DNA of 59,200 nucleotides from a virus. Positions 5,122-55,920 of this stretch are shown in pieces. The notes under the pieces are model-generated. The model did no database searches, was not told the DNA's origin, and saw nothing but the letters and a program-made list of their open reading frames with translations. The stretch lies in IMG/VR virus record IMGVR_UViG_3300025018_002313; one strand, given 5' to 3'. How positions within the stretch are numbered: position 1 is the stretch's first letter; each line of letters starts with the position of its first letter. A program made the position numbers and the translations under genes.

Positions 5122-5467
5122 TATATATCTCCTTTATATTATTTATAGCTAGTTCTCCGAAATGTTTACTTATTCCCTCTTCAAGTACATTGTAAGTAAA
5201 CACCTTTTCTTTCATTAATTCCGGAGTTACAATAATAGTCCGATTAACTGAAAGGTCAACTTTTCTCTTTATAATTGACACACCAATTTCAATTTGAGCG
5301 TTATCTTCTATGAATTTTACATTCAACATTTCACCGTAGATAAAAATACCCCCTGTACCTGGTTTTTTGTACTCTACATATATAAATTTACCTTCTGTCA
5401 AAGGTTTGTATATCAACTGTAATTCTGGATCTAGTTCATTATATTGTAACGTTTTTAAAATATTCAT
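5081..5467 (-). CDS. Hypothetical protein; start trimmed to the internal Met (MNILKTLQYNELD...)
   Basis: The six-frame ORF 5081..5518 overlaps the upstream endonuclease gene. The third Met of the ORF, giving MNILKTL..., would reduce the overlap to about 29 nt. Confidence 0.3.
   Translation of the reverse strand: MNILKTLQYNELDPELQLIYKPLTEGKFIYVEYKKPGTGGIFIYGEMLNVKFIEDNAQIEIGVSIIKRKVDLSVNRTIIVTPELMKEKVFTYNVLEEGISKHFGELAINNIKEIYNEGQSNGGFGAYL
5140..5147 (-). promoter_or_regulatory. T4-late-promoter-like TATAAATA, about 18 nt upstream of the ATG of the 4444..5121 gene
   Basis: tatttata on the plus strand, lying inside the 3' end of the upstream ORF. Confidence 0.3.
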
Positions 5468-6434
5468 AATTTTTATCCAATATACAAATAAAATCATAGC
5501 CTTGCTCAATACAAGCATTCTTTTTAAGCTCCAAATTTATTTCTGTTTGTATTTTCATAATATAAGATGATTTTATTTCAACAATAAGGTTTAATTTTGG
5601 TATATAAAAATCAGGGTAATATCTTTTCTTTTTTCCTTTTTCAAAATAATAAATTGTCGGTGGACGGTAAACTATTTCATTTTCAGTTAAAATATTATTA
5701 TTTATTACAAAATCTAAGAAACCATCTTCATACCCTTGAACATAAATTTCTTGTCCAGACGGTAAAATATATTGTTTTGATTTAAATGTGTGTATTATTT
5801 GATTTCTAGTTCTATGTTTTCTTAATCTAATACCGCACTCTTTTAATATTCGATACAACACTGGCCTTGAAATTGAATGTATTCGACATATATCTTTTGT
5901 TAATATCTCTTTTTCATAATCATTACAAATTTGTTTAATATTATATCGTCTGTTTATACGATATTTTTGACTTTCTGCAGGTGTACGTATTTTTATTTTC
6001 CACTCTTTCAATAAACTGTTAACTAGAGTAGTAGAAGCGTTAAAAATATTTCCGATTTCTTTTGTTGTTCTTCCTAAATTATATAGCTTTATTATCTCTT
6101 CTATTTTATTTCTTATATCAGTTTTGAAAACAGGTGAAGGATAATCATGTGCTTTTCGTTTTTTAATATTTGCTTGTTGTAATTTTTTATTCACTGATGT
6201 TTCAGTAATACTAAACATTTCTGCAATATGTTTTAATGTTTTACCTTCTTTATATAATTTACATGCTTTTCTAATAGTTAAAGCTGAGCGTGGTCGTACT
6301 GTGATATTATTTTCTTTTAATATTCTACCTATAGTAGGATTGGTAACATTATATTTTTTTGCAAGTTCAACTGTATTTTGTCCTTGTTGATATAATATTA
6401 CTATCTCTTGTCTCTGTTTTTTTGATAACTTCAT
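5439..6434 (-). CDS. Multi-HTH DNA-binding protein with a C-terminal PD-(D/E)XK nuclease motif; putative free-standing homing endonuclease
   Basis: 331 aa with four tandem HTH-like units (ELAKKYNVTNPTIGRIL; LKHIAEMFSITETSVNKKL; TKEIGNIFNASTTLVNSL; RIHSISRPVLYRIL). C-terminal YPDFYIPKLNLIVEIK follows the D-x(n)-E-x-K pattern. Inserted between structural genes and the helicase. Confidence 0.45.
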   Translation of the reverse strand: MKLSKKQRQEIVILYQQGQNTVELAKKYNVTNPTIGRILKENNITVRPRSALTIRKACKLYKEGKTLKHIAEMFSITETSVNKKLQQANIKKRKAHDYPSPVFKTDIRNKIEEIIKLYNLGRTTKEIGNIFNASTTLVNSLLKEWKIKIRTPAESQKYRINRRYNIKQICNDYEKEILTKDICRIHSISRPVLYRILKECGIRLRKHRTRNQIIHTFKSKQYILPSGQEIYVQGYEDGFLDFVINNNILTENEIVYRPPTIYYFEKGKKKRYYPDFYIPKLNLIVEIKSSYIMKIQTEINLELKKNACIEQGYDFICILDKNYEYFKNVTI

Positions 6435-11792: not shown

Positions 11793-12401
11793 TTAGATTA
11801 CTACCTTGCTTGTCGCAACAAACACATCTTGTGATGTTGCATAAAACGCTTGACATACCTTCTCCATAAATGCAGTACACGCCTGATCTTCCATATTCGT
11901 TGAATATGCAAATGCAGGTGCTTTCTTACCGGCAACGACATTAATACCGGTATGTCCAAGTATTGATCCGTTTTTCTCACCTACAATGCTTACACTAGCT
12001 TTACCTCGCTGCTGTATAACTCCACCTTGCTGAAATTCCTTGTTTACAAAGATATCATCACCTTCTATGTCTATTGGTGCTTGTATAAGGCTTCCTAATA
12101 AATCACCCATTATTGAGCATAGTAGTCTCTGAAAACATACACCGCCGTATAGATTTGTGAGAGGTAATTCGTAGCAGAAATTAATCATATCATCCGAATA
12201 GATATAATCCTTACTAATTAGATCTTCCAGATCAATCATAAATTCGGTTTCTACTATTGTAGGAGAGCGGAATGCGATAATGTTGCCAATCGGTAATACT
12301 TTATCTCTAAACACTTTATACGCAAACCGATTATGAATCATTGAACCGTCATAGTAATCAACACCAAATACTTCTTTTAACTTCTCTCTTGTTAATATCA
12401 T
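11793..12401 (-). CDS. Hypothetical protein
   Basis: 202 aa. Checked for FolE and QueD motifs; none found. Confidence 0.35.
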   Translation of the reverse strand: MILTREKLKEVFGVDYYDGSMIHNRFAYKVFRDKVLPIGNIIAFRSPTIVETEFMIDLEDLISKDYIYSDDMINFCYELPLTNLYGGVCFQRLLCSIMGDLLGSLIQAPIDIEGDDIFVNKEFQQGGVIQQRGKASVSIVGEKNGSILGHTGINVVAGKKAPAFAYSTNMEDQACTAFMEKVCQAFYATSQDVFVATSKVVI

Positions 12402-12411
12402 TTGTTTCCTT

Positions 12412-12939
12412 TTATAATTTGTTTATAATGTCTGATCGTGCTTGTGAAATGGCTTTACCTAGAAGGTTTCGACCCCATCTATCTCTCTCGAGAATATTGG
12501 GATTATACTCACTCATTCCAATCCCCCAAATATTATCAGTTGGGGACGCTTCGACAAGCTCATATGGATCTGTCATTAGTAATAGTTCTCCCCATGTCGA
12601 GTTTTGAGAAAACTTATCAAAATTAATCTTAGTTACTGCGCCTAAAGCAACAGCTTCCCATTGTTGTACATCGAAGTTTTTAATCATTCTTCCTATAGCC
12701 TTTTGATTCCGTGGATGGTCTGTGTTCTTGATATGCTCGTAAGCTTCGTGATCATTGAATACTTTTGCTTTAAAGAGCATCATTGCTTGTTCGGCACAAT
12801 TAACATCTTCGCCTACTAGATGAGAATGAAATCTACAATCTGCCCACTGTGAAAATATACCACCGTAGAAAAAGATAATCTTTTTATTAGGATATACTGT
12901 TGCACCTAATAGCTCACTATAATACTCCTTATCATCCAT
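12412..12939 (-). CDS. NADAR / YbiA-like (DUF1768) N-glycosidase family protein
   Basis: 175 aa. FFYGGIFSQWA...CAEQAMMLFKAKVF...NIWGIGM parallels E. coli YbiA FYS..FSNFA...SEHYFQAQKF...WGDG. Confidence 0.6.
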   Translation of the reverse strand: MDDKEYYSELLGATVYPNKKIIFFYGGIFSQWADCRFHSHLVGEDVNCAEQAMMLFKAKVFNDHEAYEHIKNTDHPRNQKAIGRMIKNFDVQQWEAVALGAVTKINFDKFSQNSTWGELLLMTDPYELVEASPTDNIWGIGMSEYNPNILERDRWGRNLLGKAISQARSDIINKL

Positions 12940-13132
12940 TATTCTCTTCCTCTCTCAATGCAACAATTTTCTCTTTTAGTTTCTGATTCTTCTTGATCAT
13001 AATTAGCGAAGATGTAACCAGATTCGAACCTGATGCCTTTCCATTCTCATAGACTATTCTGCCACTAAAATATACATCTTCTCGGAACCAACTTCACCTA
13101 GGATTCATCAGCTCCTTCTTCTAATACCTTAC

Positions 13133-13873
13133 TTACTTGTTCTCATATGCAAGAGGATCCACCGCACCATTTACCTTAAATGCAGTCAAACGCTCCATAC
13201 ACGCCGGGCATTTGCCGCAACTCGGCTCCACACCGTTGTAGCAAGTATATGAATCTTCGTAAACACTTATATCATGCTTTTCAAGAATACGCTTTACAGT
13301 TTCTTCTTTCTTTTCATTGATAAGAGGAGTTTCGATTCGAAGATCAACCTCACCCAAACAAACTAAAAACGCGTCATTTTCTGTTTTTGAAACGTTTGGC
13401 ATATATTCACTGCCTTTTACTGGATTAGTACGACCGGCTTGAATAGCTGCTTCTAATAGTTTGAAGAAAGGTGCTCTACAATCACGATATGCTTCAAAGT
13501 CTTCCTTACACGCGCCATGTACAATTACATCACAATCATTCTCTTGTGCAAATGCTGCTGCAAACAAACAGAAAATAGCATTACGCTGCGGCACAACTGT
13601 ACTTCTCTGATCTGCCATATCAGTAGTCACATCAATATTTGTATCAATAAGACTACAACCGCCAATCTGACTAATAGGTACATCAAGAACTACTCTCTTA
13701 ATTCCTCTCTTATCACAAAACTTAAAAGCTGCGGCGTTTTCTTTATCAAAATGGCGTTGACCATAATGAAACCCAATACTTATAATATTTTCTGGTCCAT
13801 ACTTTTCTATATAATCCAACATAATTGCTGTTGAATCCATACCACCGCTATGCATTATTAGTTTCTTACTCAT
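13133..13873 (-). CDS. queC: 7-cyano-7-deazaguanine (preQ0) synthase QueC
   Basis: 246 aa. PP-loop MHSGGMDST at the N terminus and C-terminal zinc-site cysteines (CYNG...CGKCPAC). Length and layout are typical of QueC. Confidence 0.85.
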   Translation of the reverse strand: MSKKLIMHSGGMDSTAIMLDYIEKYGPENIISIGFHYGQRHFDKENAAAFKFCDKRGIKRVVLDVPISQIGGCSLIDTNIDVTTDMADQRSTVVPQRNAIFCLFAAAFAQENDCDVIVHGACKEDFEAYRDCRAPFFKLLEAAIQAGRTNPVKGSEYMPNVSKTENDAFLVCLGEVDLRIETPLINEKKEETVKRILEKHDISVYEDSYTCYNGVEPSCGKCPACMERLTAFKVNGAVDPLAYENK

Positions 13874-34385: not shown

Positions 34386-35231
34386 ATGAAAAATAAAATA
34401 GGACTAGGAATAGTTACATATAATAAAGAAGATAGACTAAAACAAAGTGGCGCAACAGTACCAGTCGATGCAGTAGATTCGTTCGTTGTTGTTAATGACG
34501 GCACACCGTACTCTGAATACCCGGCAGATGCTGAAGTGATAATTCATCCACGTAACATGTGCGTCGGTGTCGCGAAGAATACCGCTATGCGTCACCTATT
34601 ACAAGCAGGATGTGATCATATTTTCTTAATGGAAGACGATATGCTTATTAAACGTCCAGATGTATTCGAAGCATATATTCACGCTGCCGAGAATAGCGGA
34701 ATATGGCATATGAACTATGCCCTACAAGGACCAGCAAACAGAAAGCAAGTAAATAATGGTCCAATGTATATTGATAAGAGACAAGAACTCGATCAGACAT
34801 CTGAACCAAATCCAAGAGCAACTATTGATTATGATGGTATAGATGTATCGTTCTATCCTAACTCAGTCGGATCGTTTTCTTACTACTTAAAAGGAGTTAT
34901 TAAAACAGTTGGATATCATGATGAACAATTTAAGAATGCCTGGGAGCATGTAGAACATACATATAGAGTTATTAAGGCAGGGTTACATCCTCCTTTCTGG
35001 TGGTTTGCAGATATTGCCAATAGTTACGAATATCTTACAGACATCCCTAACTGTATAGAGGAAAGTACGATCGCGCATACCCCTGAATGGATACAAAATT
35101 TTCAAAAAGGCATGGCTTGGTTTAAGAGTAAGCATGGATATGTACCACAACAAATACCAGATACAGATGCAAACCAAGTAATACAAACACTTGATCAAAT
35201 AAAGAGCAGTTATGCACGTAAAGTTCTGTAA
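34386..35231 (+). CDS. Glycosyltransferase-like protein (GT-A / GT2-like)
   Basis: 281 aa. N-terminal IGLGIVTYNKEDRL and an acidic DxD-type motif (LMEDDML), typical of GT2 enzymes. Confidence 0.4.
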   Translation: MKNKIGLGIVTYNKEDRLKQSGATVPVDAVDSFVVVNDGTPYSEYPADAEVIIHPRNMCVGVAKNTAMRHLLQAGCDHIFLMEDDMLIKRPDVFEAYIHAAENSGIWHMNYALQGPANRKQVNNGPMYIDKRQELDQTSEPNPRATIDYDGIDVSFYPNSVGSFSYYLKGVIKTVGYHDEQFKNAWEHVEHTYRVIKAGLHPPFWWFADIANSYEYLTDIPNCIEESTIAHTPEWIQNFQKGMAWFKSKHGYVPQQIPDTDANQVIQTLDQIKSSYARKVL

Positions 35232-35605
35232 CGGGTCCGTTATGAATATCAATGTAGCTAATACTAGAATTAATACTGAACCAAAAAAACTGATGAACGG
35301 CTGGTCCATTAAGGTAGATATAGAAACTTATGATTCTTGTACTCCTAGTTTGATAACGATGCCCGACAAAAAAATAAAGCGCGTATTTCGTCTATGCAAA
35401 GGATTAATATGAAAAATCAAAAAACAGAATTTGATGGTGGATTACCGAAGATATGTATTCCTATGATGCGTCGCACATTCCCAGAATTAATAACTAATGA
35501 GATCGTTGGTGTACAACCAATGAGCGGCTTTAATTCTAAGATAAAATCTCAGAGGAGTATCAGAGAGAAAATAAAGAGAATTATTAACAATTTGAGAGGA
35601 TTAAT

Positions 35606-36136
35606 ATGACAACTTTAGTTAAGACATTTGATGAGATGAAAGAGATGTTCAACCAGCAGATTGAAGATAATAAAGTCAGATACTACGAAAAGACAGGACT
35701 AGCATGTATACGTGAAGCGATATCTGGAGAGGTAGAGACTACAAACGTTGCAAAGGAAGGTGATTATGTTATTAGGTCCGTTGGAATAAACAGAGAACAA
35801 TATATTGTATCAAAAAAGAAAATCGAAAATAGATACGAATTATTAAGTGATGATATAGATGAAGACGGATTTAAAACATATAAAGCTACAGGGCGTATAT
35901 TCGGATTTCAATATACTGGTATAGTTACATTCAGATTTAAAGCATCCTGGGGAGAACTTATGCTTGTAAACGATGGTGATTATATTTGTACGCCAGATAC
36001 AAACACCTACGATGATCGTCTACCAAAAGTACTTATTCCGATGGTTCATCATAAGATACGCGAGTTAATCACAAACGGAACTGATATATATCGAATAGAA
36101 CAAAACGAATTTAAGCGTAGCTATAAGGAGATATAA
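35606..36136 (+). CDS. Hypothetical protein
   Basis: 176 aa. Preceded by two small overlapping ORFs (35212..35412 and 35394..35609) that may be real small genes. Confidence 0.3.
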   Translation: MTTLVKTFDEMKEMFNQQIEDNKVRYYEKTGLACIREAISGEVETTNVAKEGDYVIRSVGINREQYIVSKKKIENRYELLSDDIDEDGFKTYKATGRIFGFQYTGIVTFRFKASWGELMLVNDGDYICTPDTNTYDDRLPKVLIPMVHHKIRELITNGTDIYRIEQNEFKRSYKEI

Positions 36137-36915
36137 TGCGTATCGGACTTTTAATGCCTGCTAGAGAGAGACTAAATTTAAACCTAACGTTTATCTCCTC
36201 TATTATCACAACAGTTGAGAATATCGAAAACGTTACTCTATACATGGGGATTGACGATGATGATCCAACTCGTGATATTCAGATGAAAATTGCTAATGCA
36301 ATTCCATTTGTTAAGTTCGTACCTATTCATAATGAAGGTAAATTTATTGGCTTAGGTAAAATGTGGAATATTCTTGCTGCAGAGTGTAAAGAAGAGATCT
36401 TTGGATATGTTGGTAACGACATGATCTTTCGAACACCTAATTGGGATAGAAAGATTATAGACAAGTTCGAAAAGGAATGTCCAAAGGATAACATAATGCT
36501 GTATCATTGCAATGACGGGCATAGAGGGCCTGAATTATGTGTTAATGCTTTTGTACACAGAAAATATATGGAGATAGTAGGATATTTCATTCGTGATGAA
36601 TTTCTAATCAATTGGTCTGATCAATGGATGCACCAGATTTTCGATTCTTTCGGTCGGTTAGAATATATACCAGATATACTAATTGAACATAATCATTGGA
36701 TATTCGGCGGCCGTGAGCGAGATACAACCGCCAACAGAATGCTCAGTGATAACCATGATAGAGTTAGCGATAATATGTGGACTAAGTTAGGACCAGAGAG
36801 AGACGCTGAAGCTAAACAACTTAGTAGATATCTAAAAATATCCCCAGATTGGAGTAAAATTGAAAACAAATCTAGAGACATTGGCGAGAGAAACTTTAAT
36901 ACATACACCTGGTAA
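36136..36915 (+). CDS. Hypothetical protein, possibly a nucleotide-sugar transferase
   Basis: 259 aa with an acidic MGIDDDDPT motif. Confidence 0.25.
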   Translation: MRIGLLMPARERLNLNLTFISSIITTVENIENVTLYMGIDDDDPTRDIQMKIANAIPFVKFVPIHNEGKFIGLGKMWNILAAECKEEIFGYVGNDMIFRTPNWDRKIIDKFEKECPKDNIMLYHCNDGHRGPELCVNAFVHRKYMEIVGYFIRDEFLINWSDQWMHQIFDSFGRLEYIPDILIEHNHWIFGGRERDTTANRMLSDNHDRVSDNMWTKLGPERDAEAKQLSRYLKISPDWSKIENKSRDIGERNFNTYTW

Positions 36916-37116
36916 TATAGTAGAGATCGGAGGAGGGTAGGTAATGCTACTGTTGGATTTTTACGTGTTGCTAGAGAGTTAGATAGGACGGTTATTGTTA
37001 TTGATCCTTTTGAAGAAGCGTTAGACAAAACACCGCCATCGTACATTAAACCTTATACAAAAACTCAATTTCTTAAAAATACCGACAACTATAAAGAGCA
37101 TCTTCATTTATGTCAA

Positions 37117-37401
37117 ATGTTTTCTGCTGACCCAAAAGTGTATGATGAACTATTAAATTATACGCCAATCTCATTTGCGTTTGTAGATGGGCTACAGTTT
37201 AAAGATAGTGTGTTATCCGATTTAGCTTTAATGACTAGACTAAACGTGCCAGTTATTTGTGTTGATGATTTTACGAGAAATACAGATATAAGTCAAGTAC
37301 CTGAAGCAACAATTGAGTTTTTGAAGCAAGGTAAGTATACAGTGCAGGAGACGTTTGATAGAGGAGCAGGGCGTGTAGTAGGAGTGTTTAAAATAAAATG
37401 A
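37117..37401 (+). CDS. Hypothetical protein
   Basis: 94 aa ORF. Confidence 0.25.
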   Translation: MFSADPKVYDELLNYTPISFAFVDGLQFKDSVLSDLALMTRLNVPVICVDDFTRNTDISQVPEATIEFLKQGKYTVQETFDRGAGRVVGVFKIK

Positions 37402-38705
37402 AATTATCAATTCTAATTTGTAGTTTGGAGGATCGTCTGGTACAGTTGCAACAACTGAGAACTAAGTTAATAGACCAGAGCGATATGGATGTAGTAGAGA
37501 TATTGACCGAGACAGATGCCGGTGAAATGCACACAGGAGCAAAGAGAAATAAACTACTACTACAGGCAAAAGGAGATTACATCGCATTTGTTGATGATGA
37601 TGATATGGTATCGGATGATTATGTCTCAAAAATACTTAAAGCAATTGAAACAAATCCTGATTGTTGTGGACTAGAAGGTATTATAACAACAGATGGAAAC
37701 AACCCACACTTATTCATACACTCGCTAACTTGCGGTAGCTGGTACGAGAAGGACGGAATATACTATCGTACACCTAATCATCTAAACACAGTAAAGCGGG
37801 AAATTGCACTAAAAGTTATGTTTAATGATGATATGTCGAATTGTGAAGATAGAGACTATTCTCTACGGATACAACCTTACCTAAAAACTGAAGAATATAT
37901 AAAAGGTCCTATATACTTTTATAAATGTACTTCTGCACCAAAACAGTACAATAAACAACGAGTAAACAAATCAAAAGTAATACTTGTTAACTATGCGGAT
38001 AAACATTTTTATCACTCACAGAAGCATAATACAGAAACAGGAAAACAATTTGGTTTTAACGGTGCAGCTGAATGTAATTTGAACTCTCTTGATATAAATT
38101 TTCGAAATAAATTCGCACATATCCTCAATCAATCCAGAGGTGCAGGGTATTGGCTATGGAAACCGTATATAATATGCAAAGTACTTGAACAAGTCAACTA
38201 CGGTGATATCGTTTTTTATTGCGATTCAGGTGCTATATTTGAGAAAGATATAACACCATTAATTGATATATGTAGAGAAGATGATATAGTTCTTTTTCAT
38301 ATAGCACCGCACGGGGTGACTGAGCCACATACAAATGCAAAATGGACAAAAAGAGATGCATTTGTATTAATGGGGTGTGACGAAGAAAAGTATTACAATG
38401 CTAATCAATATCTAGGCGGCTTTCAAATATACAAAAAGACAGATAGAACAATGGTCTTTGTGAAGGAGATGCTCAAATACTCACAAGATGAAAGAATAAT
38501 TACTGATCTCCCAAATACTTGTAATTTACCAAATCTACCACAGTTTAGAGAACATAGACATGATACATCAGTTTTGAGCCTGATGGCTACAAAATACGGT
38601 ATAAAAGGACATAGGGATCCGTCCCAATTTGGTGATGATTTTCATCATATGTATCCGGATGACAAATATGATAGAATAATACTATCAACGAGAGACAGGC
38701 GATGA
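37398..38705 (+). CDS. Family-2-like glycosyltransferase
   Basis: 435 aa. N-terminal LSILICSLEDR...GAKRNKLLLQAKGDYIAFVDDDDMV, the GT2 signature with a DxD motif. Confidence 0.5.
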   Translation: MKLSILICSLEDRLVQLQQLRTKLIDQSDMDVVEILTETDAGEMHTGAKRNKLLLQAKGDYIAFVDDDDMVSDDYVSKILKAIETNPDCCGLEGIITTDGNNPHLFIHSLTCGSWYEKDGIYYRTPNHLNTVKREIALKVMFNDDMSNCEDRDYSLRIQPYLKTEEYIKGPIYFYKCTSAPKQYNKQRVNKSKVILVNYADKHFYHSQKHNTETGKQFGFNGAAECNLNSLDINFRNKFAHILNQSRGAGYWLWKPYIICKVLEQVNYGDIVFYCDSGAIFEKDITPLIDICREDDIVLFHIAPHGVTEPHTNAKWTKRDAFVLMGCDEEKYYNANQYLGGFQIYKKTDRTMVFVKEMLKYSQDERIITDLPNTCNLPNLPQFREHRHDTSVLSLMATKYGIKGHRDPSQFGDDFHHMYPDDKYDRIILSTRDRR

Positions 38706-39337
38706 GTGTTGTAAATACAGAATTAAAATATATATTCATTCATAATCCAAAGGTCGCCGGTACATCCATGGAGCAGATTGTCGGTGGATCTTCACACCAA
38801 ACGATACACGGATATTATACCCAAGGTATAAATTTGGAGGATTTTTATAAATGGATGTTTGTTAGAAACCCATATACAAGATTAATATCTGCATACAACC
38901 AGGCGAAAGCCGGCCCAACAATTTTTATAAATCGACATACCCAGAATAAAATGTCACTGGATGAGTTTAAAAATATAACTATAAACTTCACAACATTCGT
39001 CGCGAATATACACAAACTGTTTGACTTCAATTTGCAAAACTATAATGAGGAAATGTTCCATAAAAACCAACATATCATCATGGATCATATTGCACCTCAG
39101 TCTTACTTTTGTAATATTGACGGAAAAAATGTACTGGATTTTATAGGTAGGCTTGAATCTATCGATTGCGATTGGTTTTCACTTTGTCGTAAAATCGGAA
39201 TCATACAGACACTACCACAAATGAATATCGGTATATCCAGTAGTGTCACAAACTATTATCAATCACAAAGTACTATTGATATTGTAAACGAACTATACAA
39301 TACTGATTTTGAGCTTTTTGGATACAATAAATTATGA
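38702..39337 (+). CDS. Carbohydrate sulfotransferase-like protein (Sulfotransfer_2-type)
   Basis: 211 aa. 5'-PSB-like IFIHNPKVAGTS and 3'-PB-like FVRNPYTRLISAY (RDPxxRxxSxY pattern). Confidence 0.5.
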   Translation: MSVVNTELKYIFIHNPKVAGTSMEQIVGGSSHQTIHGYYTQGINLEDFYKWMFVRNPYTRLISAYNQAKAGPTIFINRHTQNKMSLDEFKNITINFTTFVANIHKLFDFNLQNYNEEMFHKNQHIIMDHIAPQSYFCNIDGKNVLDFIGRLESIDCDWFSLCRKIGIIQTLPQMNIGISSSVTNYYQSQSTIDIVNELYNTDFELFGYNKL

Positions 39338-40149
39338 AACTTAACTTAGATAAAATTATTATAAGCACAAACGATGATCCAGATTTTTACAATTTCTGGG
39401 AACTAGCATACCGAGGATGGAAAGCATTCTTTCCGGAAATTGAAATGATACTCACGTTTATTACAAATCGATCGGAAGATGATACGATAGTAACCCATCT
39501 GCGTAGGTGGGGCACTGTTAAGCTATATAAAGAAATTCCTGGTATACCTACACCAAATCTCGCAAAAGTGTCTCGAATGATCGAAGCAACGAAGCACGGA
39601 GATGCTATTTGTATGGTGAATGACATAGATCTAGTACCACTTCAAAGAGAGTATGTAGTTGAACGGTTATCACATTTTGATCCTGATAAGCTATTAGGTA
39701 TCGGTACTCTGAATCATATCGGATTAAAAGATAAATTTCCGATGGGATATACAACAGCAGTAAGTAGCGTGTGGAATCGAATAGTTAATCCAAATAATCT
39801 CGGATATGAAGATCTTGTCAATAGTTGGCGGAATATTCAGCATTTTGATTTACAGGAAGCAGTAAATAATTTACCAGCGGACGGAGTCAATCCTAGAGGC
39901 TTCTCTGACGAGTCATTGTTGAGATATTTACGCTCTAGAGAGCCGTCTATCCTTAATCAGATAGAGCGTGGATTTGTGCCCCTACAAGATGGAGTGGATA
40001 GAGCAGCCTGGAGTAATCTAGATATAGATAGACTTAATAGAGGTGGTTACGTTGAAGCACATTTACTACGACCACTTACGAAATATATAAAAGAAATAAA
40101 TGTAATCGCAGATTACATAAAAAAGGTAGAGCGTGAAAAAAGTATTTAG
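39334..40149 (+). CDS. Hypothetical protein, possibly GT-A-like
   Basis: 271 aa with acidic STNDDPDF and MVNDIDLVPL motifs. Confidence 0.25.
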   Translation: MKLNLDKIIISTNDDPDFYNFWELAYRGWKAFFPEIEMILTFITNRSEDDTIVTHLRRWGTVKLYKEIPGIPTPNLAKVSRMIEATKHGDAICMVNDIDLVPLQREYVVERLSHFDPDKLLGIGTLNHIGLKDKFPMGYTTAVSSVWNRIVNPNNLGYEDLVNSWRNIQHFDLQEAVNNLPADGVNPRGFSDESLLRYLRSREPSILNQIERGFVPLQDGVDRAAWSNLDIDRLNRGGYVEAHLLRPLTKYIKEINVIADYIKKVEREKSI

Positions 40150-40696
40150 ATTTGATGATATTTGTATTAATAGTAAAATGACTGATGCGATATTGATGGC
40201 AGAAGAAATAAAAAAGCAAGTACAGAATGCAGAAGTTTGGTTCTGTGTTTCGCCGATGGTTCATACCATAGACGACCCTGATCCTGTGTCACAGCAGAGA
40301 ATATTTCCAAAGATATTTAACGCTCACAGTGATTATAGGATATTTTACACCATCAATAAATGCGGAGTGCCTGATTTTCCTGCATGGATAACCCGTGCAG
40401 GTCATGGACTCATTCACGTGGATCATCGATTACTTGAACACGCGGCTCAAGAATTAAGTATTTTAACAAGCTGCAATCTGGTTAACGCCGATATATTTGT
40501 ACCACCGTTTAACAAGTGGAACAAAATCACCGAGCGGATTTGTCAGGAGAATGACATACATTTAGTGAAATTTGAGGACGGCTGGTTAAGTGCAGAACAT
40601 AACGAATATAACATGAAACACGATAAATGGTATTTACATCATAGAGCGTTTACAGTAGCAGAATTTAAAGAATGGTTGGAGGTAAAACATGGATAA
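40133..40696 (+). CDS. Possible polysaccharide deacetylase-like (NodB / CE4-like) protein
   Basis: 187 aa. FRFDDIC resembles NodB motif TFDDG; HGLIHVDH resembles the H-x-x-x-H metal motif. Weak. Confidence 0.25.
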   Translation: MKKVFRFDDICINSKMTDAILMAEEIKKQVQNAEVWFCVSPMVHTIDDPDPVSQQRIFPKIFNAHSDYRIFYTINKCGVPDFPAWITRAGHGLIHVDHRLLEHAAQELSILTSCNLVNADIFVPPFNKWNKITERICQENDIHLVKFEDGWLSAEHNEYNMKHDKWYLHHRAFTVAEFKEWLEVKHG

Positions 40697-41168
40697 ACAA
40701 TTTGGTGGAAGCGGTATTACAAAAGAAGTATTTGACTGGATTACTGATAACATTTCAGTTGGAAAAGTAATAGTCGAACTAGGTGCAGGAGACGTTAGTA
40801 CAAAATATCTATCTGAACGATATGAATTATACTCTGTTGAAGATGTACCGAAATTTTGCGGTAAATGGGCAAGTACATACATTCACGCGCCATTGGTTGA
40901 TGGGTGGTATGATATAAACATACTAAAGGAAGGTCTACCAGAAAGATTCAGCCTGTTGCTTATTGACGGTCCGGTCAAATTTTCAGACTTCCGTCCTGGT
41001 GTAGGAGATAGATTAAAAATTCTTGATCACCTGGATTTATTTGACAAAGACGCTATCATCATTGTTGATGATACAAATAGACCGGCGGAGAGAAATCTAC
41101 TAGATGCACTAGCACAAAAAACCGGTAAAAAGAAAACAGTATTCTCGTCCTTTGGAGTGCTACAGTGA
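40689..41168 (+). CDS. Possible class I SAM-dependent methyltransferase
   Basis: 159 aa with a VIVELGAGDVSTKYL Gly-rich motif-I-like segment. Confidence 0.3.
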   Translation: MDKQFGGSGITKEVFDWITDNISVGKVIVELGAGDVSTKYLSERYELYSVEDVPKFCGKWASTYIHAPLVDGWYDINILKEGLPERFSLLLIDGPVKFSDFRPGVGDRLKILDHLDLFDKDAIIIVDDTNRPAERNLLDALAQKTGKKKTVFSSFGVLQ

Positions 41169-41713
41169 TAGTCGCAATACATCAACCTAATTTCTTTCCT
41201 TGGTATCCATTCTTTAAAAAGATGGATCAGGCAGATGTGTTTGTTATTCTTACGCATTGTCAATTCGAAAAAAATAATTACCAAAATAGATTTCATTATA
41301 ATGATAAATGGTATACGTTGAGTGTAAATAAAGGACTTGAACCTATCCATCAAAAAGTATATGTTCGACCAAATGATGATTGGGTTAAGATTAAAAGTAA
41401 TCTTAAACAGTTTCCACTTGATCAATTTGATGATGATATTGACGCATCATTATGGGCAACTAATGAAAAAATTATTTCTCGAATAAAAAGTATCCTCGAT
41501 ATTAAAACTACTATTAAACTCGACTATCCAACTGAATTAAATAAATCAGAGCGCTTAGTTGATATATGCAAGCAACACAATGCAACACAATACCTTGCTG
41601 GTAGAGGTGCAAAGAACTATATGGATATAGAACCATTTGAAAGAGCCGGTATTGAAGTAATCTATCAAGAAGTTGACGAAAAAGATATGGTACCTATTAT
41701 AACGAAATTATGA
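41165..41713 (+). CDS. WbqC-like family protein (O-antigen / glycan biosynthesis associated)
   Basis: 182 aa. MIVAIHQPNFFPWYPFFKKMDQADVFVILTHCQFEKNNYQNR matches the WbqC-family N-terminal signature HQP.y.Pw...f.K...D.fv.LD.vqf.k...nRn. Confidence 0.5.
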   Translation: MIVAIHQPNFFPWYPFFKKMDQADVFVILTHCQFEKNNYQNRFHYNDKWYTLSVNKGLEPIHQKVYVRPNDDWVKIKSNLKQFPLDQFDDDIDASLWATNEKIISRIKSILDIKTTIKLDYPTELNKSERLVDICKQHNATQYLAGRGAKNYMDIEPFERAGIEVIYQEVDEKDMVPIITKL

Positions 41714-42450
41714 ATAACAAACTATTACACAACAAGCAATTTTTAAACTTTATCGGATCAGATTGGGGCGGACTCTATGTTGATTTGAAGTTGATTGAAC
41801 AAGATAGTACAGTAATATCAGCAGGTCTTGGTAGTGATGTATCGTTTGATTTAGCTTTGATGGAACTTAAGAACTGTACTGTTATTGGCATCGATCCAAC
41901 ACAAACTGCTAGAGATACAGTATTCGAGACAGCAGATGGGAATCCATTATTTGCAAAGAACTTTCGGTATGTGCAGAGAGCGCTGCTCGATGTGTCTGAC
42001 AGAGAAATTACTCTAGGTGGACCAGCCGTAACATTTATATCTCCTCACGGGGAACACGCAAGGACAGTATGTCTGAACGATGTATATGATAAGATCGACA
42101 GAGAAAAAGTATCTTTCCTAAAACTCGATATTGAAGCGGCAGAATATCCCGTTATTCAGAGTTTTACTCCGTTACCATCGATGGCACAAATAGGTATAAG
42201 CTTCCACCACTGGCTAAACGGACCTACGGATCAGTATCCAAATCCCGGAGCCACCTGCCCCTACACCCTAGATGATACAGTTGCATGTATTGAAAAGATA
42301 AAGAGCTTTGGATATAAATTGGTGCATATAGATAATGCAGACCCACTACGATATTTTCAAGAGGTTTTATTCATACGCTCTGACCTTGCAGAGAAATACA
42401 AAGACTTAACGTTTGAATATGAAGGTAATAATATAAAGAAGAACAAATGA
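41710..42450 (+). CDS. FkbM-family-like methyltransferase
   Basis: 246 aa with VISAGLGSDVSFDLAL...VIGIDP, the pattern seen in FkbM-domain methyltransferases. Confidence 0.35.
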   Translation: MNNKLLHNKQFLNFIGSDWGGLYVDLKLIEQDSTVISAGLGSDVSFDLALMELKNCTVIGIDPTQTARDTVFETADGNPLFAKNFRYVQRALLDVSDREITLGGPAVTFISPHGEHARTVCLNDVYDKIDREKVSFLKLDIEAAEYPVIQSFTPLPSMAQIGISFHHWLNGPTDQYPNPGATCPYTLDDTVACIEKIKSFGYKLVHIDNADPLRYFQEVLFIRSDLAEKYKDLTFEYEGNNIKKNK

Positions 42451-42611
42451 CGGATGAAAGATATAGCAAACTACTAAATTTGCATGAGAGACTAAAAGAA
42501 GTAAAGAGTATGAAGAAATCTGCAGCTAAAGACTATAGAGATCAAATTAAAGAAATTGAAGAAGAAATTGAAGGATTGGTCGAAGACATAAGAGAACAAC
42601 CAGAAAAGTAA
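42447..42611 (+). CDS. Small coiled-coil protein (54 aa)
   Basis: Manual translation MTDERYSKLLNLHERLKEVKSMKKSAAKDYRDQIKEIEEEIEGLVEDIREQPEK. Its ATG overlaps the upstream stop (ATGA). Below the length cutoff of the ORF track. Confidence 0.3.
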   Translation: MTDERYSKLLNLHERLKEVKSMKKSAAKDYRDQIKEIEEEIEGLVEDIREQPEK

Positions 42612-42620
42612 TTAGGTATG

Positions 42621-42648
42621 TTGCAAAATATGGTATCGATCGTATAAT
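42621..42648 (+). promoter_or_regulatory. Sigma70-like promoter (TTGCAA, 16-nt spacer, TATAAT) directly upstream of the guaC-like gene
   Basis: ttgcaa at 42621..42626 and tataat at 42643..42648. The ATG at 42655 is only 6 nt downstream, which implies a leaderless or very short-leader mRNA. Confidence 0.3.
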
Positions 42649-42654
42649 TTAATT

Positions 42655-43671
42655 ATGAAAGCAAGAACATTCTCAGACGTAACGATTATACCGAAATTTA
42701 CATGTGTCGGTCGCAATGGTAGTTTAGCTACAAGACTCTGCAACGGGGAAGATTCACTTGAACTCCCTATTATCTCCGCCAATATGCCTGCGATTGCAAA
42801 TGCAGAAGTATGCGATGCAATGAGGTATGGCGGAGGTATGGGTATTCTGCATCGTTTTAATGAAGTGAATGAAGCAGTGGAAGAATATAACCATGCATCA
42901 TTTGGTGGAAAGTCTATTGTAGGTGTGTCGTTAGGTGTAAAAAATGATGATACCTACAATAGATTCGAGAAACTATATGAAGCAGGCGCGAGAGTGTTTT
43001 GTATTGATGTAGCTCACGGACATCAAGATAAAGTTCACTCACTACTAAAATGGATCAATAATCAAATATTCCAATGGGCTAGAAGTGAAAGAAATAAGGT
43101 GACTCTTATTGCCGGTAATGTTGCTACTGCTGATGCTGTAATAGCATTAGGTGAATGGGGAGCAGATATTGTTAAAGTTGGAATTGGTCCCGGTAGTGCT
43201 TGCACTACAAGACTTGATACCGGAGTAGGTGTCCCACAATTGTATGCTCTCGAGCAGGCACACAATGCAGTAATGCAGCAGAAAGTACCAGTTAAAATCA
43301 TCTCCGATGGTGGATGTAAATGTACAGGTGATATTGCAAAAGCCTTAAAATATGCGGATGCTGTTATGGTAGGCTTTATGCTAGCAGGTACAACTGAAAC
43401 TCCCGGTGAGTATATTAACGTTGGCGGTAAGCAGATGAAAGTATATTTTGGCTCAGCAAGTTTTAAGAATAAAGGTGAAAAGAAGCATATAGAAGGTAGA
43501 GATTTTCTAGTTGAAAAGAAGGGATCCATTAGTGATGTTCTTGATAAGATTAGAGACGGGCTACATTCATCACTGGGATATGTTGGAGCAAGTAATTTAC
43601 AACAATTTAAAAACAATTGTGAGTTCTTAGATATAACTGCTGGAGGTAAAGCAGAAAGCAAATATGAGTAA
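42655..43671 (+). CDS. guaC: GMP reductase (IMPDH/GMPR family, GuaC type without CBS domains)
   Basis: 338 aa. CIDVAHG, GADIVKVGIGPGSACTTR, SDGGCKCTGDIAKA and YVGAS match E. coli GuaC CIDVANG, GADIVKVGIGPGSVCTTR, SDGGCTTPGDVAKA and YVGAS. The catalytic Cys is present. Confidence 0.8.
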   Translation: MKARTFSDVTIIPKFTCVGRNGSLATRLCNGEDSLELPIISANMPAIANAEVCDAMRYGGGMGILHRFNEVNEAVEEYNHASFGGKSIVGVSLGVKNDDTYNRFEKLYEAGARVFCIDVAHGHQDKVHSLLKWINNQIFQWARSERNKVTLIAGNVATADAVIALGEWGADIVKVGIGPGSACTTRLDTGVGVPQLYALEQAHNAVMQQKVPVKIISDGGCKCTGDIAKALKYADAVMVGFMLAGTTETPGEYINVGGKQMKVYFGSASFKNKGEKKHIEGRDFLVEKKGSISDVLDKIRDGLHSSLGYVGASNLQQFKNNCEFLDITAGGKAESKYE

Positions 43672-44617
43672 AATTTTAGTTACAGGTGGTTGCGGGTTTA
43701 TCGGTAGTAACTACGTCGATTATAAGTTACTAACAGATTCAAGCATAGAAATTATTTGTGTCGATACATTGGATATTGGTGGATCAGAGGATAATGTTTC
43801 TGAGTGGTCTAGAAATAGTGGACGATACAAAATGTATAATACTGATATTTGTGATGCAGATGAAATGAGTAAAATTTTTGCATATGAAATGCCAGATATT
43901 GTTGTAAATTTCGCAGCACAAACTCATGTTGATCGAAGTCTCATCGACAGAACATATTTCGCAACAACAAATGTAGTCGGTACGCAAGTAATATTGGATC
44001 AAATAATTAAGTATAAAACAAAGCGCTTTGTGCAAGTATCTACAGACGAAGTGTATGGCAGTATCGATAGCGGTCTATTCGAAGAGACATTTATGCTTCA
44101 TCCAAATAATCCATACTCTGCTACTAAAGCTGGCGCTGAGATGCTTGTACAGGCCGCAGTTCATTCATTTGGAGTTAATGCTTCTATTACAAGAAGTTGC
44201 AACAATTACGGTCCGAGACAATACCATGAAAAACTAATACCAATGGTTATTCATAATGCTCTTAAAGGTCTTCCTGTTAAAGTCTTTAATGATGGGCTAT
44301 CAATAAGAGAATGGATATATGTTCTCGACAATGTAATCGGAATTGACACAGTGGTCGAAAAAGGCAGGAGAGGTGAGGTATATAATATCGGTTCAGGTAT
44401 CGAACTTCAGAATATTGATGTAGTTACCACTGTATTAGATATTCTAGGTAAACCTCATAGTCTAATCGAATATACAAATGATCGTGCAAATGATGATCGT
44501 AGATACGCACTTAACTGTTCGAAGATATTTACTCACCTAGAATGGCGATCAAAAGTAAATTGGAAAGAAGGCATCAACCAAACGGTTGAATGGTATCTGG
44601 CAAACAAATATGAATAA
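43664..44617 (+). CDS. rmlB: dTDP-glucose 4,6-dehydratase (RmlB / RfbB, SDR family)
   Basis: 317 aa. ILVTGGCGFIGSNYV Rossmann motif, YSATK catalytic motif, and the characteristic RfbB length. Confidence 0.7.
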   Translation: MSKILVTGGCGFIGSNYVDYKLLTDSSIEIICVDTLDIGGSEDNVSEWSRNSGRYKMYNTDICDADEMSKIFAYEMPDIVVNFAAQTHVDRSLIDRTYFATTNVVGTQVILDQIIKYKTKRFVQVSTDEVYGSIDSGLFEETFMLHPNNPYSATKAGAEMLVQAAVHSFGVNASITRSCNNYGPRQYHEKLIPMVIHNALKGLPVKVFNDGLSIREWIYVLDNVIGIDTVVEKGRRGEVYNIGSGIELQNIDVVTTVLDILGKPHSLIEYTNDRANDDRRYALNCSKIFTHLEWRSKVNWKEGINQTVEWYLANKYE

Positions 44618-45416
44618 GAAAATTATAGTATTAGGTAACGGGCTACTCGGAGATGAATTCAAAAGACATGGATATACTGTCTGGGGATCAGGAGATCCGT
44701 TTTGTTACAAACACGGTGACGGTACGTACACTTATTGCTGGGAATCACTGGATCAATTTGATGTTATAATCAACTGTCTTGGTAAGACTGTAACTCGTTG
44801 GTGTGAATCTCCTTGCAATTATTCAGCTGCATTGTATGCGAATGGAACACTACCCGGACTTCTAAGCATTGGATGCAAAGAACACAATCAAAAATTCGTA
44901 CATATATCAACAGGCTGTCTATACGATATCTCAGATACACCACAAACTGAGGAAGATCATATTGTAGCACATTGCAACTATACAGTGACAAAATGGATGG
45001 GAGAACAAATATGTGCTCCATCCAGAGATCTTATTATTCGTCCAAGATTACTATATAATGATCAACCAACAGCGAAGAATTTACTAGGAAGACTTCCTAC
45101 GTTTTCCAAATTAGTCGGAAAATTAGATTCTATGACAAGTACGAACACTATAGTTGAAGCAGTTGAAGCTCTATTAAGCAACAACCAGGCTGGTATTTTT
45201 AATGTTGCAAATCGTGGCTATGTTTCTATGTATGAGGTCGGACAGATCATCGGATGTAGAGCTGAAAAAACAACGATAGAAGAAGTTCGAAAGGAAAGCC
45301 ATATTCATCTCGTTAATACTACAATGGACGTTTCAAAATTATTACAGTTTTATGATCCCGGTGATGTCCGTAGTGAAATTACAAGGTGTTGGAAAGCGAT
45401 GAATGAAGGAAGTTAA
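44586..45416 (+). CDS. dTDP-4-dehydrorhamnose reductase-like (RmlD-like) SDR
   Basis: 276 aa. IIVLGNGLLGDE, DVIINCLG, HISTGCLYD, YTVTKWMGE and IIRPRLLY parallel the RfbD motifs. Confidence 0.5.
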   Translation: MNGIWQTNMNKKIIVLGNGLLGDEFKRHGYTVWGSGDPFCYKHGDGTYTYCWESLDQFDVIINCLGKTVTRWCESPCNYSAALYANGTLPGLLSIGCKEHNQKFVHISTGCLYDISDTPQTEEDHIVAHCNYTVTKWMGEQICAPSRDLIIRPRLLYNDQPTAKNLLGRLPTFSKLVGKLDSMTSTNTIVEAVEALLSNNQAGIFNVANRGYVSMYEVGQIIGCRAEKTTIEEVRKESHIHLVNTTMDVSKLLQFYDPGDVRSEITRCWKAMNEGS

Positions 45417-53610: not shown

Positions 53611-53912
53611 TGACAAAATACGTAATTGGTATTGTTCATCCGAAGCGGGGTAATATATACTTACGGACTATACATAAAACTGAAGCACATGTAACAAGTA
53701 ATCGTGAGTTTATTCGACCAAGTGCTACATTTTATACACCCGACAAGGCATATCAAGCTATTGAGCAGATCAATGAACTATGGGGGAATGACAAATGGTT
53801 TTCGACACGTAGTAGTGATCTATATAAAGCAGAAAAAGTTATACTAAAATGGCATGTACCGTGTCACGGCATACAAGAAGATTTATTGATAAAAGATATA
53901 GGAGAATTCTAA
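53610..53912 (+). CDS. Hypothetical protein
   Basis: 100 aa ORF. Start overlaps the uvsX stop; its own stop overlaps the next start. Confidence 0.3.
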   Translation: MTKYVIGIVHPKRGNIYLRTIHKTEAHVTSNREFIRPSATFYTPDKAYQAIEQINELWGNDKWFSTRSSDLYKAEKVILKWHVPCHGIQEDLLIKDIGEF

Positions 53913-54718
53913 TGGTAAAAATATCCCATGAATGTCCATTTTCATTAATGGAGAAGGCACGAACTGACTTTAATGATTATGATTATTGTCTTGTTCACTT
54001 ACTTGAGAAGGATGAAAGATATCTAAATTTCTTCGTTGAATCGAAGAAAATGGGTCGCCATATTTTACTCGATAATTCAATTTTTGAGCTAGGTACAGCA
54101 TTTAATCCAGTACAGTTCGCAAAGTGGGTTGATTGGCTTAAGCCCCAGGAGTATATTATTCCCGATGTTCTTGAAGATTGTAAAGGAACTATACAAAATG
54201 CAAAAGATTGGCTTGCAACATATAGTGACTTACCAGGAATAAAGATTGGTGTTGTACAAGGAAAAACATATTCAGAGTTAGTAGAGTGCTATGAATTTAT
54301 GTCGAAAAATGTAGATAAAATTGCAATCAGTTTTGATTACAGCTATTATGAATTAACTGGGCTTGGCCATAATAAATGGCAGAAGTTTGCGAATGGTCGA
54401 CAGAATTTTATATTCCGTATGTTAGCCGAAAAGAAATGGAACTTCTGGAAACCACATCACTTGTTAGGTGCTGCAGTGCCCCAAGAGTTTAAATTTTATG
54501 CGGATTTATGGGATAACGCAAACATCCAATCTCTTGATACATCTAATCCAATTCAGCAAGCACTACTCGGACATGAATATACTATACACGGTCTTATTGA
54601 TAAAGATACAACAAAAGTAGCAGATTCATTTAATGCAGATTATAATGAAACGGACCTATCCATGTTAAGTGATAACGTCTGTATGTTCAGAAAATTTTGC
54701 AGTGGAGCAGTAAAATGA
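53912..54718 (+). CDS. tRNA-guanine-transglycosylase-fold protein, DpdA-like 7-deazaguanine DNA transglycosylase candidate
   Basis: Start moved to the ATG at 53912 (RBS ggag 7 nt upstream, TAATG overlap). HHLLGAAVPQEFKFYADLWDNANIQSLDTSNP parallels TGT HLLGVGKPDDIV...GIDMFDCVLPTRSG. ILLDNSIFELG parallels the TGT DSGGFQ region. Confidence 0.55.
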   Translation: MVKISHECPFSLMEKARTDFNDYDYCLVHLLEKDERYLNFFVESKKMGRHILLDNSIFELGTAFNPVQFAKWVDWLKPQEYIIPDVLEDCKGTIQNAKDWLATYSDLPGIKIGVVQGKTYSELVECYEFMSKNVDKIAISFDYSYYELTGLGHNKWQKFANGRQNFIFRMLAEKKWNFWKPHHLLGAAVPQEFKFYADLWDNANIQSLDTSNPIQQALLGHEYTIHGLIDKDTTKVADSFNADYNETDLSMLSDNVCMFRKFCSGAVK

Positions 54719-55269: not shown

Positions 55270-55920
55270 ATGAGAATATCTATTAGCGGATCGCAATGTG
55301 TTGGAAAGACAACACTAATTAATGATTTGTTCAGTAAGATTGAAATCAATCAACGATTCAGTCTAAGAAATGAAACTACACGAAATGTATTAAGAGACAA
55401 TCTCGGATTTGGTACTCTACCAATTAACGAGGAGGGTGGAGATCTGACACAACGATTGATCTGTTCACAGCATTTAATCAATCACGCAGCTGGGGAAACT
55501 GGAGATGTTATCTACGATCGTTGCGCATTAGATGGGTTGGTTTATACTTCATATTTATATGATGTTAATCGTGTAAGTAGAGAGACGCTTCGCATTGCGG
55601 AAGCAATTTTTGAAAATACTAAGTATGACATTATGTTCTACATTCCTCCAGAGGTTCCGTTGGAGGAAGATGGGGAAAGAAGTGTAAGCCCGTCATTTCG
55701 TAATTCAATCTGTAATTTATTCGAGGAGTATATTACCAGTTATAATCTTCAAGTCGGATACCTAAAAGGTACACGCGAAGAGAGAGTTCAGAGAATCTTA
55801 GAAACAATTAAAGCATATGATGATTATCAAAATAAACAAACAAAAATGTTTAATACACTTGATAAGAATCTGCAGAACGCAATCCAGACTATTAAAACTG
55901 ATTTACATATAAAGGAGTAA
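55270..55920 (+). CDS. P-loop NTPase / kinase-like protein, paralog B of the 20587..21273 gene
   Basis: 216 aa. Walker A GSQCVGKTT and shared downstream motifs with paralog A. Sits between the formyltransferase and queF. Confidence 0.5.
   Translation: MRISISGSQCVGKTTLINDLFSKIEINQRFSLRNETTRNVLRDNLGFGTLPINEEGGDLTQRLICSQHLINHAAGETGDVIYDRCALDGLVYTSYLYDVNRVSRETLRIAEAIFENTKYDIMFYIPPEVPLEEDGERSVSPSFRNSICNLFEEYITSYNLQVGYLKGTREERVQRILETIKAYDDYQNKQTKMFNTLDKNLQNAIQTIKTDLHIKE

Follow-up and report, generated by a model that had tools for sequence, protein, structure and literature searches.

An orphan NADAR-domain gene in an uncultured T4-like phage is a candidate ADP-ribosyl glycohydrolase of the AdfN type

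An uncultured T4-like phage carries an intact NADAR-domain gene whose product we take, with moderate confidence, to be an orphan AdfN-like ADP-ribosyl-base glycohydrolase that would act on phage DNA modified by host toxins, freeing guanine, and perhaps cytosine, of ADP-ribose. This reading draws on sequence comparison, a predicted structure and analogy with characterised phage enzymes: from the family, fold, conserved active site and phage context of the protein, together with the ADP-ribose and NAD+ genes that neighbour its relatives, we infer its substrate and a role in counter-defence, and we consider that role plausible.

The gene lies in a 59,200-nucleotide stretch of viral DNA (IMG/VR virus record IMGVR_UViG_3300025018_002313), referred to here as the window. 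The window belongs to a myovirus of the T4 superfamily and encodes the portal gp20, gp15, UvsY, a UvsX/RecA-like protein, a family-B DNA polymerase, and gp46/47-like and DnaB-like proteins. Its portal is about 30% identical to those of cyanophages, and no cultured phage is closely related to it; a DNA-level search of the NADAR region against 50,697 phage records returned no match. The longest contigs that carry this NADAR or the portal protein of the window measure 171.7 kb and 236.4 kb.

Two further regions of the window are worth recording. A sugar/glycan island on the plus strand (34386-45416) encodes two GT2-type glycosyltransferases, a sulfotransferase, a WbqC-like protein, an FkbM-type methyltransferase, a GDP-mannose-4,6-dehydratase-like protein and an RmlD-like reductase, and includes a GMP-reductase/IMPDH-family protein at 42655-43671. 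On the minus strand, between helicase and structural genes, a 331-aa protein (5439-6434) has an N-terminal HTH, a DUF7487 domain and a weak match to TnsA-like endonucleases, and may be a homing endonuclease; another, related gene with DUF7487 is found near the NADAR of a metagenomic context, P0035, discussed below with two others.

The NADAR gene and the elements that surround it are as follows:

11793-12401, minus strand: DUF366 gene (PF04017, E 8e-25; PDB 2DDZ, E 1.7e-8), starting 10 bp downstream of the stop codon of NADAR
12412-12939, minus strand: NADAR-domain gene, a candidate orphan ADP-ribosyl glycohydrolase; an ATG-to-stop ORF of 175 aa
12946-12953, minus strand: Shine-Dalgarno-like AGAGGAAG, 6-13 nt 5' of the NADAR ATG, read from the sequence
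13009-13079, minus strand: tRNA-like element between queC and NADAR (Rfam RF00005, 28.8 bits against a gathering score of 29)
13133-13873, minus strand: queC, 7-cyano-7-deazaguanine synthase (PF06508, E 1.8e-48), 193 bp upstream of NADAR

The ORF is a genuine, intact member of the NADAR family, and this assignment is solid. It matches the Pfam NADAR profile PF08719 (DUF1768) at E 2.6e-40, reaching 138.8 bits where the cut-off is 35.1, over profile positions 11-162 of 163, and also matches phrog_1017. An earlier, sequence-only reading had proposed a YbiA/NADAR protein for this interval; its coordinates were exact, and profile match, fold and catalytic residues all bear the family out. The motifs on which it had relied are roughly right, though not letter for letter: WGxG is present, as I137-W138-G139-I-G141 (IWGIG), whereas the FSNF it had named is in fact FSQW (within F24-YGGI-F29-S30-Q31-W32) and its EHYFQ-like string is EQAMMLFK (within A49-E50-Q51-AMMLF-K57-A58), an EQxMMxxK motif that follows the pattern of stand-alone NADARs as opposed to the EHYFQ of Escherichia coli YbiA.

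The identical protein occurs on nine metagenomic contigs from at least five samples, and the base composition of the gene is that of its neighbours, giving no sign of recent transfer; together with the good ribosome-binding site, this indicates that the NADAR is a maintained gene. Scans for promoters, terminators and repeats around it did not exceed shuffled expectation, and no bordering repeats of the kind that would mark a mobile cassette were detected.

We modelled the protein with AlphaFold2 from an alignment of 41 sequences and obtained a very confident model (pLDDT 97.8, pTM 0.92) with the alpha-helical core fold of YbiA, preceded by N-terminal strands. In a Foldseek search of the PDB, the best match was 8BAU (TM 0.80/0.74) and the second 2B3W (TM 0.71/0.74), with nothing else significant and no DarG1 structure at E<=10; a PDB search by sequence matched only the same two entries, the Phytophthora NADAR with ADP-ribose (8BAU) and E. 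coli YbiA (2B3W).

To assign roles to individual residues, we took those described by Schuller et al. 2023 (PMC11543638) and mapped them through a sequence alignment with PDB 8BAU, the Phytophthora nicotianae enzyme PnNADAR. In NADARs, the catalytic pair is E43/K50 in PnNADAR and E88/K95 in E. coli C7, with a second acidic residue at E125 and D171, respectively; the position of PnNADAR E125 is occupied by Asp in DarG1 and by His in T4-type phage NADARs (PMC11543638). PnNADAR E43, K50, R79, W89, E125, D130 and W133 correspond in the window protein to these residues:

E50, K57, R84, W94, E130, D135 and W138: predicted active site of the window NADAR, based on the 8BAU alignment and the roles in PMC11543638

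Seven of the eight PnNADAR residues that contact ADP-ribose or act in catalysis are thereby kept, the sole loss being the phosphate-binding Arg93, replaced by Ala98. Among 41 homologues, E50, K57, E130 and D135 never vary, and conservation is at least 90% for R84, W94 and W138. By residue comparison, Glu130 puts the window protein among the 'NADAR' and 'YbiA' families.

On this mapping, Glu50 and Glu130 would position the distal ribose and Lys57, Arg84, Trp94, Asp135 and Trp138 would hold the diphosphate, with hydrolysis predicted at the N-glycosidic bond between C1'' of ADP-ribose and the exocyclic amine of the nucleobase. The likely substrate would be N2-ADP-ribosyl-guanine in single-stranded phage DNA, possibly also ADP-ribosyl-cytosine as for other Glu-type NADARs. 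Base modification by a DarT1-type ADP-ribosyltransferase of the host would then be undone during infection, allowing replication to proceed, a role that experiments have demonstrated for AdfN proteins.

An anti-DarT role of phage NADARs is not a new hypothesis, since it has been published by Johannesman et al. 2025 (PMC11825919). These authors found that T4 gp30.3 (AdfN-T4) and two unrelated NADARs from phages, AdfN-Bas32 and AdfN-Bas60, strip ADP-ribose from DNA and defeat DarTG1; AdfN-Bas60 counteracts DarT1, and three phages are rescued by it on hosts with DarTG1 (PMC11825919). ADP-ribosyl-guanine is hydrolysed in vitro by every NADAR type tested so far (PMC11125620; PMC12945103); antitoxin activity in vivo differs among the types, and E. 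coli YbiA and T4 gp30.3 did not rescue cells from DarT1 (PMC11125620).

We compared the window protein with two of these three validated enzymes, AdfN-Bas60 and AdfN-T4. AdfN-Bas60 (Escherichia phage PaulScherrer bas60_0111) was found by tblastn at E 6e-12 and aligned by BLASTP with 68 bits. Like the window protein, it is an orphan phage NADAR of about 180 aa with the EQxMMxxK motif, the glutamate of a VEAS string and an insertion after WGxG; it differs in belonging to a Stephanstirmvirinae coliphage, in having no queC or NAD+ genes nearby, in being about 30% identical, and in that its anti-DarT1 activity has been demonstrated (PMC11825919). The window protein and AdfN-Bas60 are both much closer to a shared set of phage sequences (PaMx28, cyanophage B23, Staphylococcus phage K-like and Vibrio phages) than to YbiA. 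In a rough neighbour-joining tree, built without the over-divergent T4 gp30.3, the split that sets YbiA and PnNADAR apart from all phage and metagenome NADARs, the window protein and AdfN-Bas60 among them, appeared in 180 of 200 bootstraps; YbiA and PnNADAR were the only two non-phage sequences in the tree. Within the phage clade, the subclade of the window protein appeared in 114 of the 200 replicates, so the tree does not settle the deep branching there.

AdfN-T4, of the 'phage NADAR' family, resembles the window protein in being an orphan gene of the NADAR superfamily in a T4-like phage, but has His at the Glu130 position and consists of the core domain alone, where the window protein has N-terminal strands as well. 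BLASTP gave no alignment of the two at E<=100, they have no NCBIfam match in common, and the window protein does not belong to the T4-type gp30.3-like family. Its lack of detectable similarity to gp30.3, with Glu130 in place of His, indicates an acquisition independent of AdfN-T4. Like the AdfNs, a functional class that is polyphyletic, it is phage-encoded with no adjacent DarT toxin.

Of the NADARs outside phages, PnNADAR ('NADAR family' of Schuller et al. 2023) is the best structural match and shares the catalytic Glu; it differs in being a eukaryotic, stand-alone protein of 25-31% identity, with Arg93 where the window protein has Ala98. The DarG1 NADARs of E. coli C7 and Trichlorobacter lovleyi share the superfamily and the proposed chemistry, removal of ADP-ribose from guanine N2, but are about 230 aa long, with a basic DNA-binding extension (beta1-beta2-alpha1) at the N-terminus, Asp at the key position and darT1 adjacent (PMC11543638). 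With Glu130, a length of 175 aa and queC and DUF366 as neighbours, the window protein is not of the DarG1/BC4488 type; nor does it belong to the DS-32 anti-phage NADARs, scoring 29.6 bits with their model NF053876 against a cut-off of 240. Identity of only about 30% to AdfN-Bas60, no alignment to AdfN-T4, which is the sole AdfN of T4 type, and the replacement of Arg93 by Ala98 all count, at the sequence level, against assigning an AdfN function.

The neighbourhoods of relatives point to the kind of chemistry involved. Scanning IMG/VR, we collected 23 loci with NADAR relatives, clustered their ORFs and annotated the cluster representatives. In 12-13 of the 23 (L033, L034, L036-L043, L045, L048 and L052), the genes follow the same order on the same strand: a Prs-like gene, a 240-aa protein, the NADAR, an NAMPT-like gene and a nucleoside-deoxyribosyltransferase (NDT)-like gene. 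The 240-aa protein has no Pfam match and instead matches macrodomain structures (BT1257, E 7e-8; SCO6735, 6e-5; TARG1 more weakly), and in nine of these 12-13 loci this TARG1/SCO6735-like macrodomain directly adjoins the NADAR. In Synechococcus phage B23, the NADAR is located between NMNAT and NAMPT. These arrangements recall the NAD+-rebuilding pathways NARP1, comprising Adps and Namat (Prs-like and NAMPT-like in appearance), and NARP2, comprising NMNAT and NAMPT (PMC13464706); the Prs-like/NAMPT-like pairs are putative counterparts of Adps and Namat. The recurrence of ADP-ribose and NAD+ neighbours argues that the substrates of this NADAR clade are ADP-ribose linkages and not intermediates of riboflavin or queuosine synthesis. 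As far as gene content goes, these contexts fit a counter-defence island that would combine ADP-ribose erasers with NAD+ rebuilding, and they support ADP-ribose/NAD+ chemistry in general, not DarT1 specifically.

The same neighbourhoods give rise to the main rival explanation, in which the NADAR serves an NAD+/ADP-ribose economy: it would hydrolyse conjugates in which ADP-ribose is N-linked to nucleic acids, to proteins or to small molecules (immune signals possibly among them), mainly so as to free ADP-ribose for NAD+ rebuilding of the NARP1 type, and would thus counter NAD+-consuming defences generally and not DarT1 in particular. Besides the relatives placed between Prs-like and NAMPT-like genes and the NMNAT/NAMPT pair of phage B23, it has a precedent in RyDEP, where a glycosidase located inside a NARP1 operon supplies NARP1 with ADP-ribose (bioRxiv 10.64898/2026.05.28.727677). 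The NARP1 and RyDEP preprints mention neither NADAR nor an island of ADP-ribose erasers and NAD+-rebuilding genes. Against it, the 59-kb window contains no Prs-like, NAMPT-like, macrodomain or NDT-like gene, in a genome of about 172-236 kb. We regard this explanation as unlikely for the window protein but worth keeping in view; it overlaps with the AdfN function and does not exclude it.

A housekeeping role as a YbiA-type N-glycosidase, destroying reactive riboflavin intermediates or damaged ribosylamino-pyrimidine nucleotides, had been offered as the alternative by the sequence-only reading and appears improbable. With TIGR02464 ('riboflavin biosynthesis intermediates N-glycosidase'), whose cut-off is 73.7 bits, the window protein reaches 123 bits, and it has the Glu of the YbiA/NADAR type at the position of PnNADAR E125. 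The anti-DarT enzyme AdfN-Bas60 also passes TIGR02464, however, with 109 bits, and the model therefore cannot choose between riboflavin and anti-DarT functions. E. coli YbiA (2B3W) does share the core fold and the Glu-type active site, and itself passes TIGR02464, but its identity is 26-33% over a partial alignment, and in a comparison of Glu-type NADARs that took in YbiA, PnNADAR and the phage clade the K-12 protein was the weakest match, with 44.7 bits over 86 aa. It reads EHYFQAQK where the window protein has EQAMMLFK, lacks both the N-terminal strands and the insertion of about 11 residues after WGxG that the window protein has, and is encoded in a chromosomal LexA-regulated operon. No riboflavin gene (RibA/RibD) and no dinG/rhlE/ybiB context occurs in the window or in the neighbourhoods of relatives. 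In phage records, NADAR homologues are often annotated as 'GTP cyclohydrolase (II)' or 'N-glycosidase YbiA'; the 'GTP cyclohydrolase II' label looks like a fusion-protein name that has been transferred.

We wondered whether the place of the gene between queC and DUF366 carries functional information. The sequence-only reading had rightly noted the neighbouring queC, which lies on the same strand, and had built on it an argument for guanine protection or anti-defence; in a wider comparison that argument fails. As in the window, a clamp-loader-like gene, p135, follows DUF366 in all 25 IMG/VR loci with DUF366 relatives, and queC lies upstream of DUF366 only in the four closest relatives of the window (L005-L008), whose QueC and DUF366 are 58-73% and 62-77% identical to those of the window and which keep the order queC, DUF366, p135. 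None of these four has a NADAR between queC and DUF366. The space is instead filled by two small ORFs and a tRNA-Asn in L005, by a 102-aa ORF, a tRNA-like element and a 120-aa ORF in L007, and in the other two by a 247-aa protein with an N-terminus that by eye is GIY-YIG-like and by a single 81-aa ORF. Conversely, QueC, QueF, DpdA3, DpdN, FolE and DUF366 were absent within 8 kb of the NADAR at all 23 viral loci, and in three metagenomic contexts of NADARs 54-65% identical to ours the neighbours are dUTPase, ThyX, helicase or NrdD; taken together, these NADARs have no queC or DUF366 within 6-8 kb. We therefore rejected the idea that conservation ties NADAR to queC or DUF366. The absence of NADAR from the slot in relatives, and of que genes at NADAR loci, indicates that the NADAR is lineage-specific cargo in a hyperplastic slot; judged by these gene orders, it is accessory cargo in a variable slot, lying after queC and the tRNA-like element and before DUF366. 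That it neighbours queC looks accidental and gives no information on function.

DUF366 is itself an archaeal-type family that hardly occurs in cultured phages, with a single match among the 50,697 phage records, in Microcystis phage MaAM05; a literature search for it returned only papers on DUF3669.

The tRNA-like element of the slot merits a separate description. A local search with RF00005 matched it over the full-length model at E 2e-4, and ARAGORN detects it at relaxed settings only, with a 6-nt anticodon loop; the acceptor stem and T arm are perfect and the anticodon arm is shortened. A homologous element with the same defect is present in the same slot of L007 (1010-1078; RF00005, 31.8 bits), and two compensatory changes in the acceptor stem, identified by eye, distinguish it from the element of the window, which suggests a conserved structured RNA and not a dead tRNA. 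At the same place, L005 has a tRNA-Asn(GTT) (970-1052), with a queuosine-family anticodon.

That the phage rewrites its guanine chemistry, as had been claimed, is well founded. In addition to QueC, a module for 7-deazaguanine DNA modification towards the end of the window, which with the nearby FolE looks complete, comprises the following genes:

53912-54718, plus strand: DpdA3 (Pfam), 48% identical to that of immuto_2-6A and 45% to that of Campylobacter phage CP220
54715-55257, plus strand: DpdN-like formyltransferase, 50% identical to immuto DpdN
55270-55920, plus strand: AAA_28 kinase-like gene (Pfam)
55922-57037, plus strand: two-domain QueF (Pfam)

FolE follows about 3 kb past the end of the window (L064:14251-14910). 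The order DpdA3, DpdN-like, AAA_28, QueF is that of Flavobacterium phage immuto_2-6A, in which this gene set leads to complete replacement of dG by 7-(formylamino)methyl-7-deazaguanine (fdPreQ1) (PMC10516641); by analogy, formyl-dPreQ1 is probably present in the DNA of the window phage. The available sequence yielded no QueD or QueE, and the three unannotated ORFs after FolE (206, 245 and 137 aa) gave no match to either by phmmer against the PDB; the two genes may be located in another part of the genome. A 174-aa 'hydrolase' beside immuto DpdA3 was considered as a possible NADAR and rejected, being unrelated.

Could the NADAR nevertheless belong to this chemistry? One scheme is that the phage, which probably replaces all its guanines through DpdA3, may specifically need the NADAR to clear N2-ADP-ribose from guanine, or from the 7-deazaguanine derivative itself, ahead of base exchange and replication; we hold this to be a long shot. 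If it were true, DNA hypermodification and de-ADP-ribosylation would form two cooperating layers of guanine protection. Still more doubtful is that the NADAR is a working part of the 7-deazaguanine system, whether in protecting or proof-reading modified G, in clearing N2-ADP-ribose for DpdA3 or in processing preQ nucleotides: its position between queC and DUF366 in a phage with DpdA3, DpdN, QueF and FolE speaks for this, but the NADAR is missing from all four of the closest queC-DUF366 slots, queC, queF, dpdA3, dpdN and folE are missing from the 23 viral NADAR loci and three metagenomic contexts, the immuto cluster has no NADAR, no NADAR or YbiA is named in a survey from 2023 of such clusters in phages (PMC10516641), and DpdA uses the free base, so that the pathway needs no glycosidase.

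For the annotation of phage genomes, the failure of TIGR02464 to discriminate makes the labels 'riboflavin N-glycosidase' and 'GTP cyclohydrolase II' uninformative on phage NADARs, and the queC case illustrates that, in a hyperplastic slot, a striking neighbour may be there by chance. If the window NADAR is active, large T4-like phages of an uncultured lineage would join those with AdfN counter-defence, and the gene would represent a third independent acquisition of a NADAR within the T4 superfamily. Its relatives provide the more interesting lead: their repeated order of Prs-like, macrodomain, NADAR and NAMPT-like genes suggests that ADP-ribose erasers and NAD+-rebuilding enzymes act as one island.
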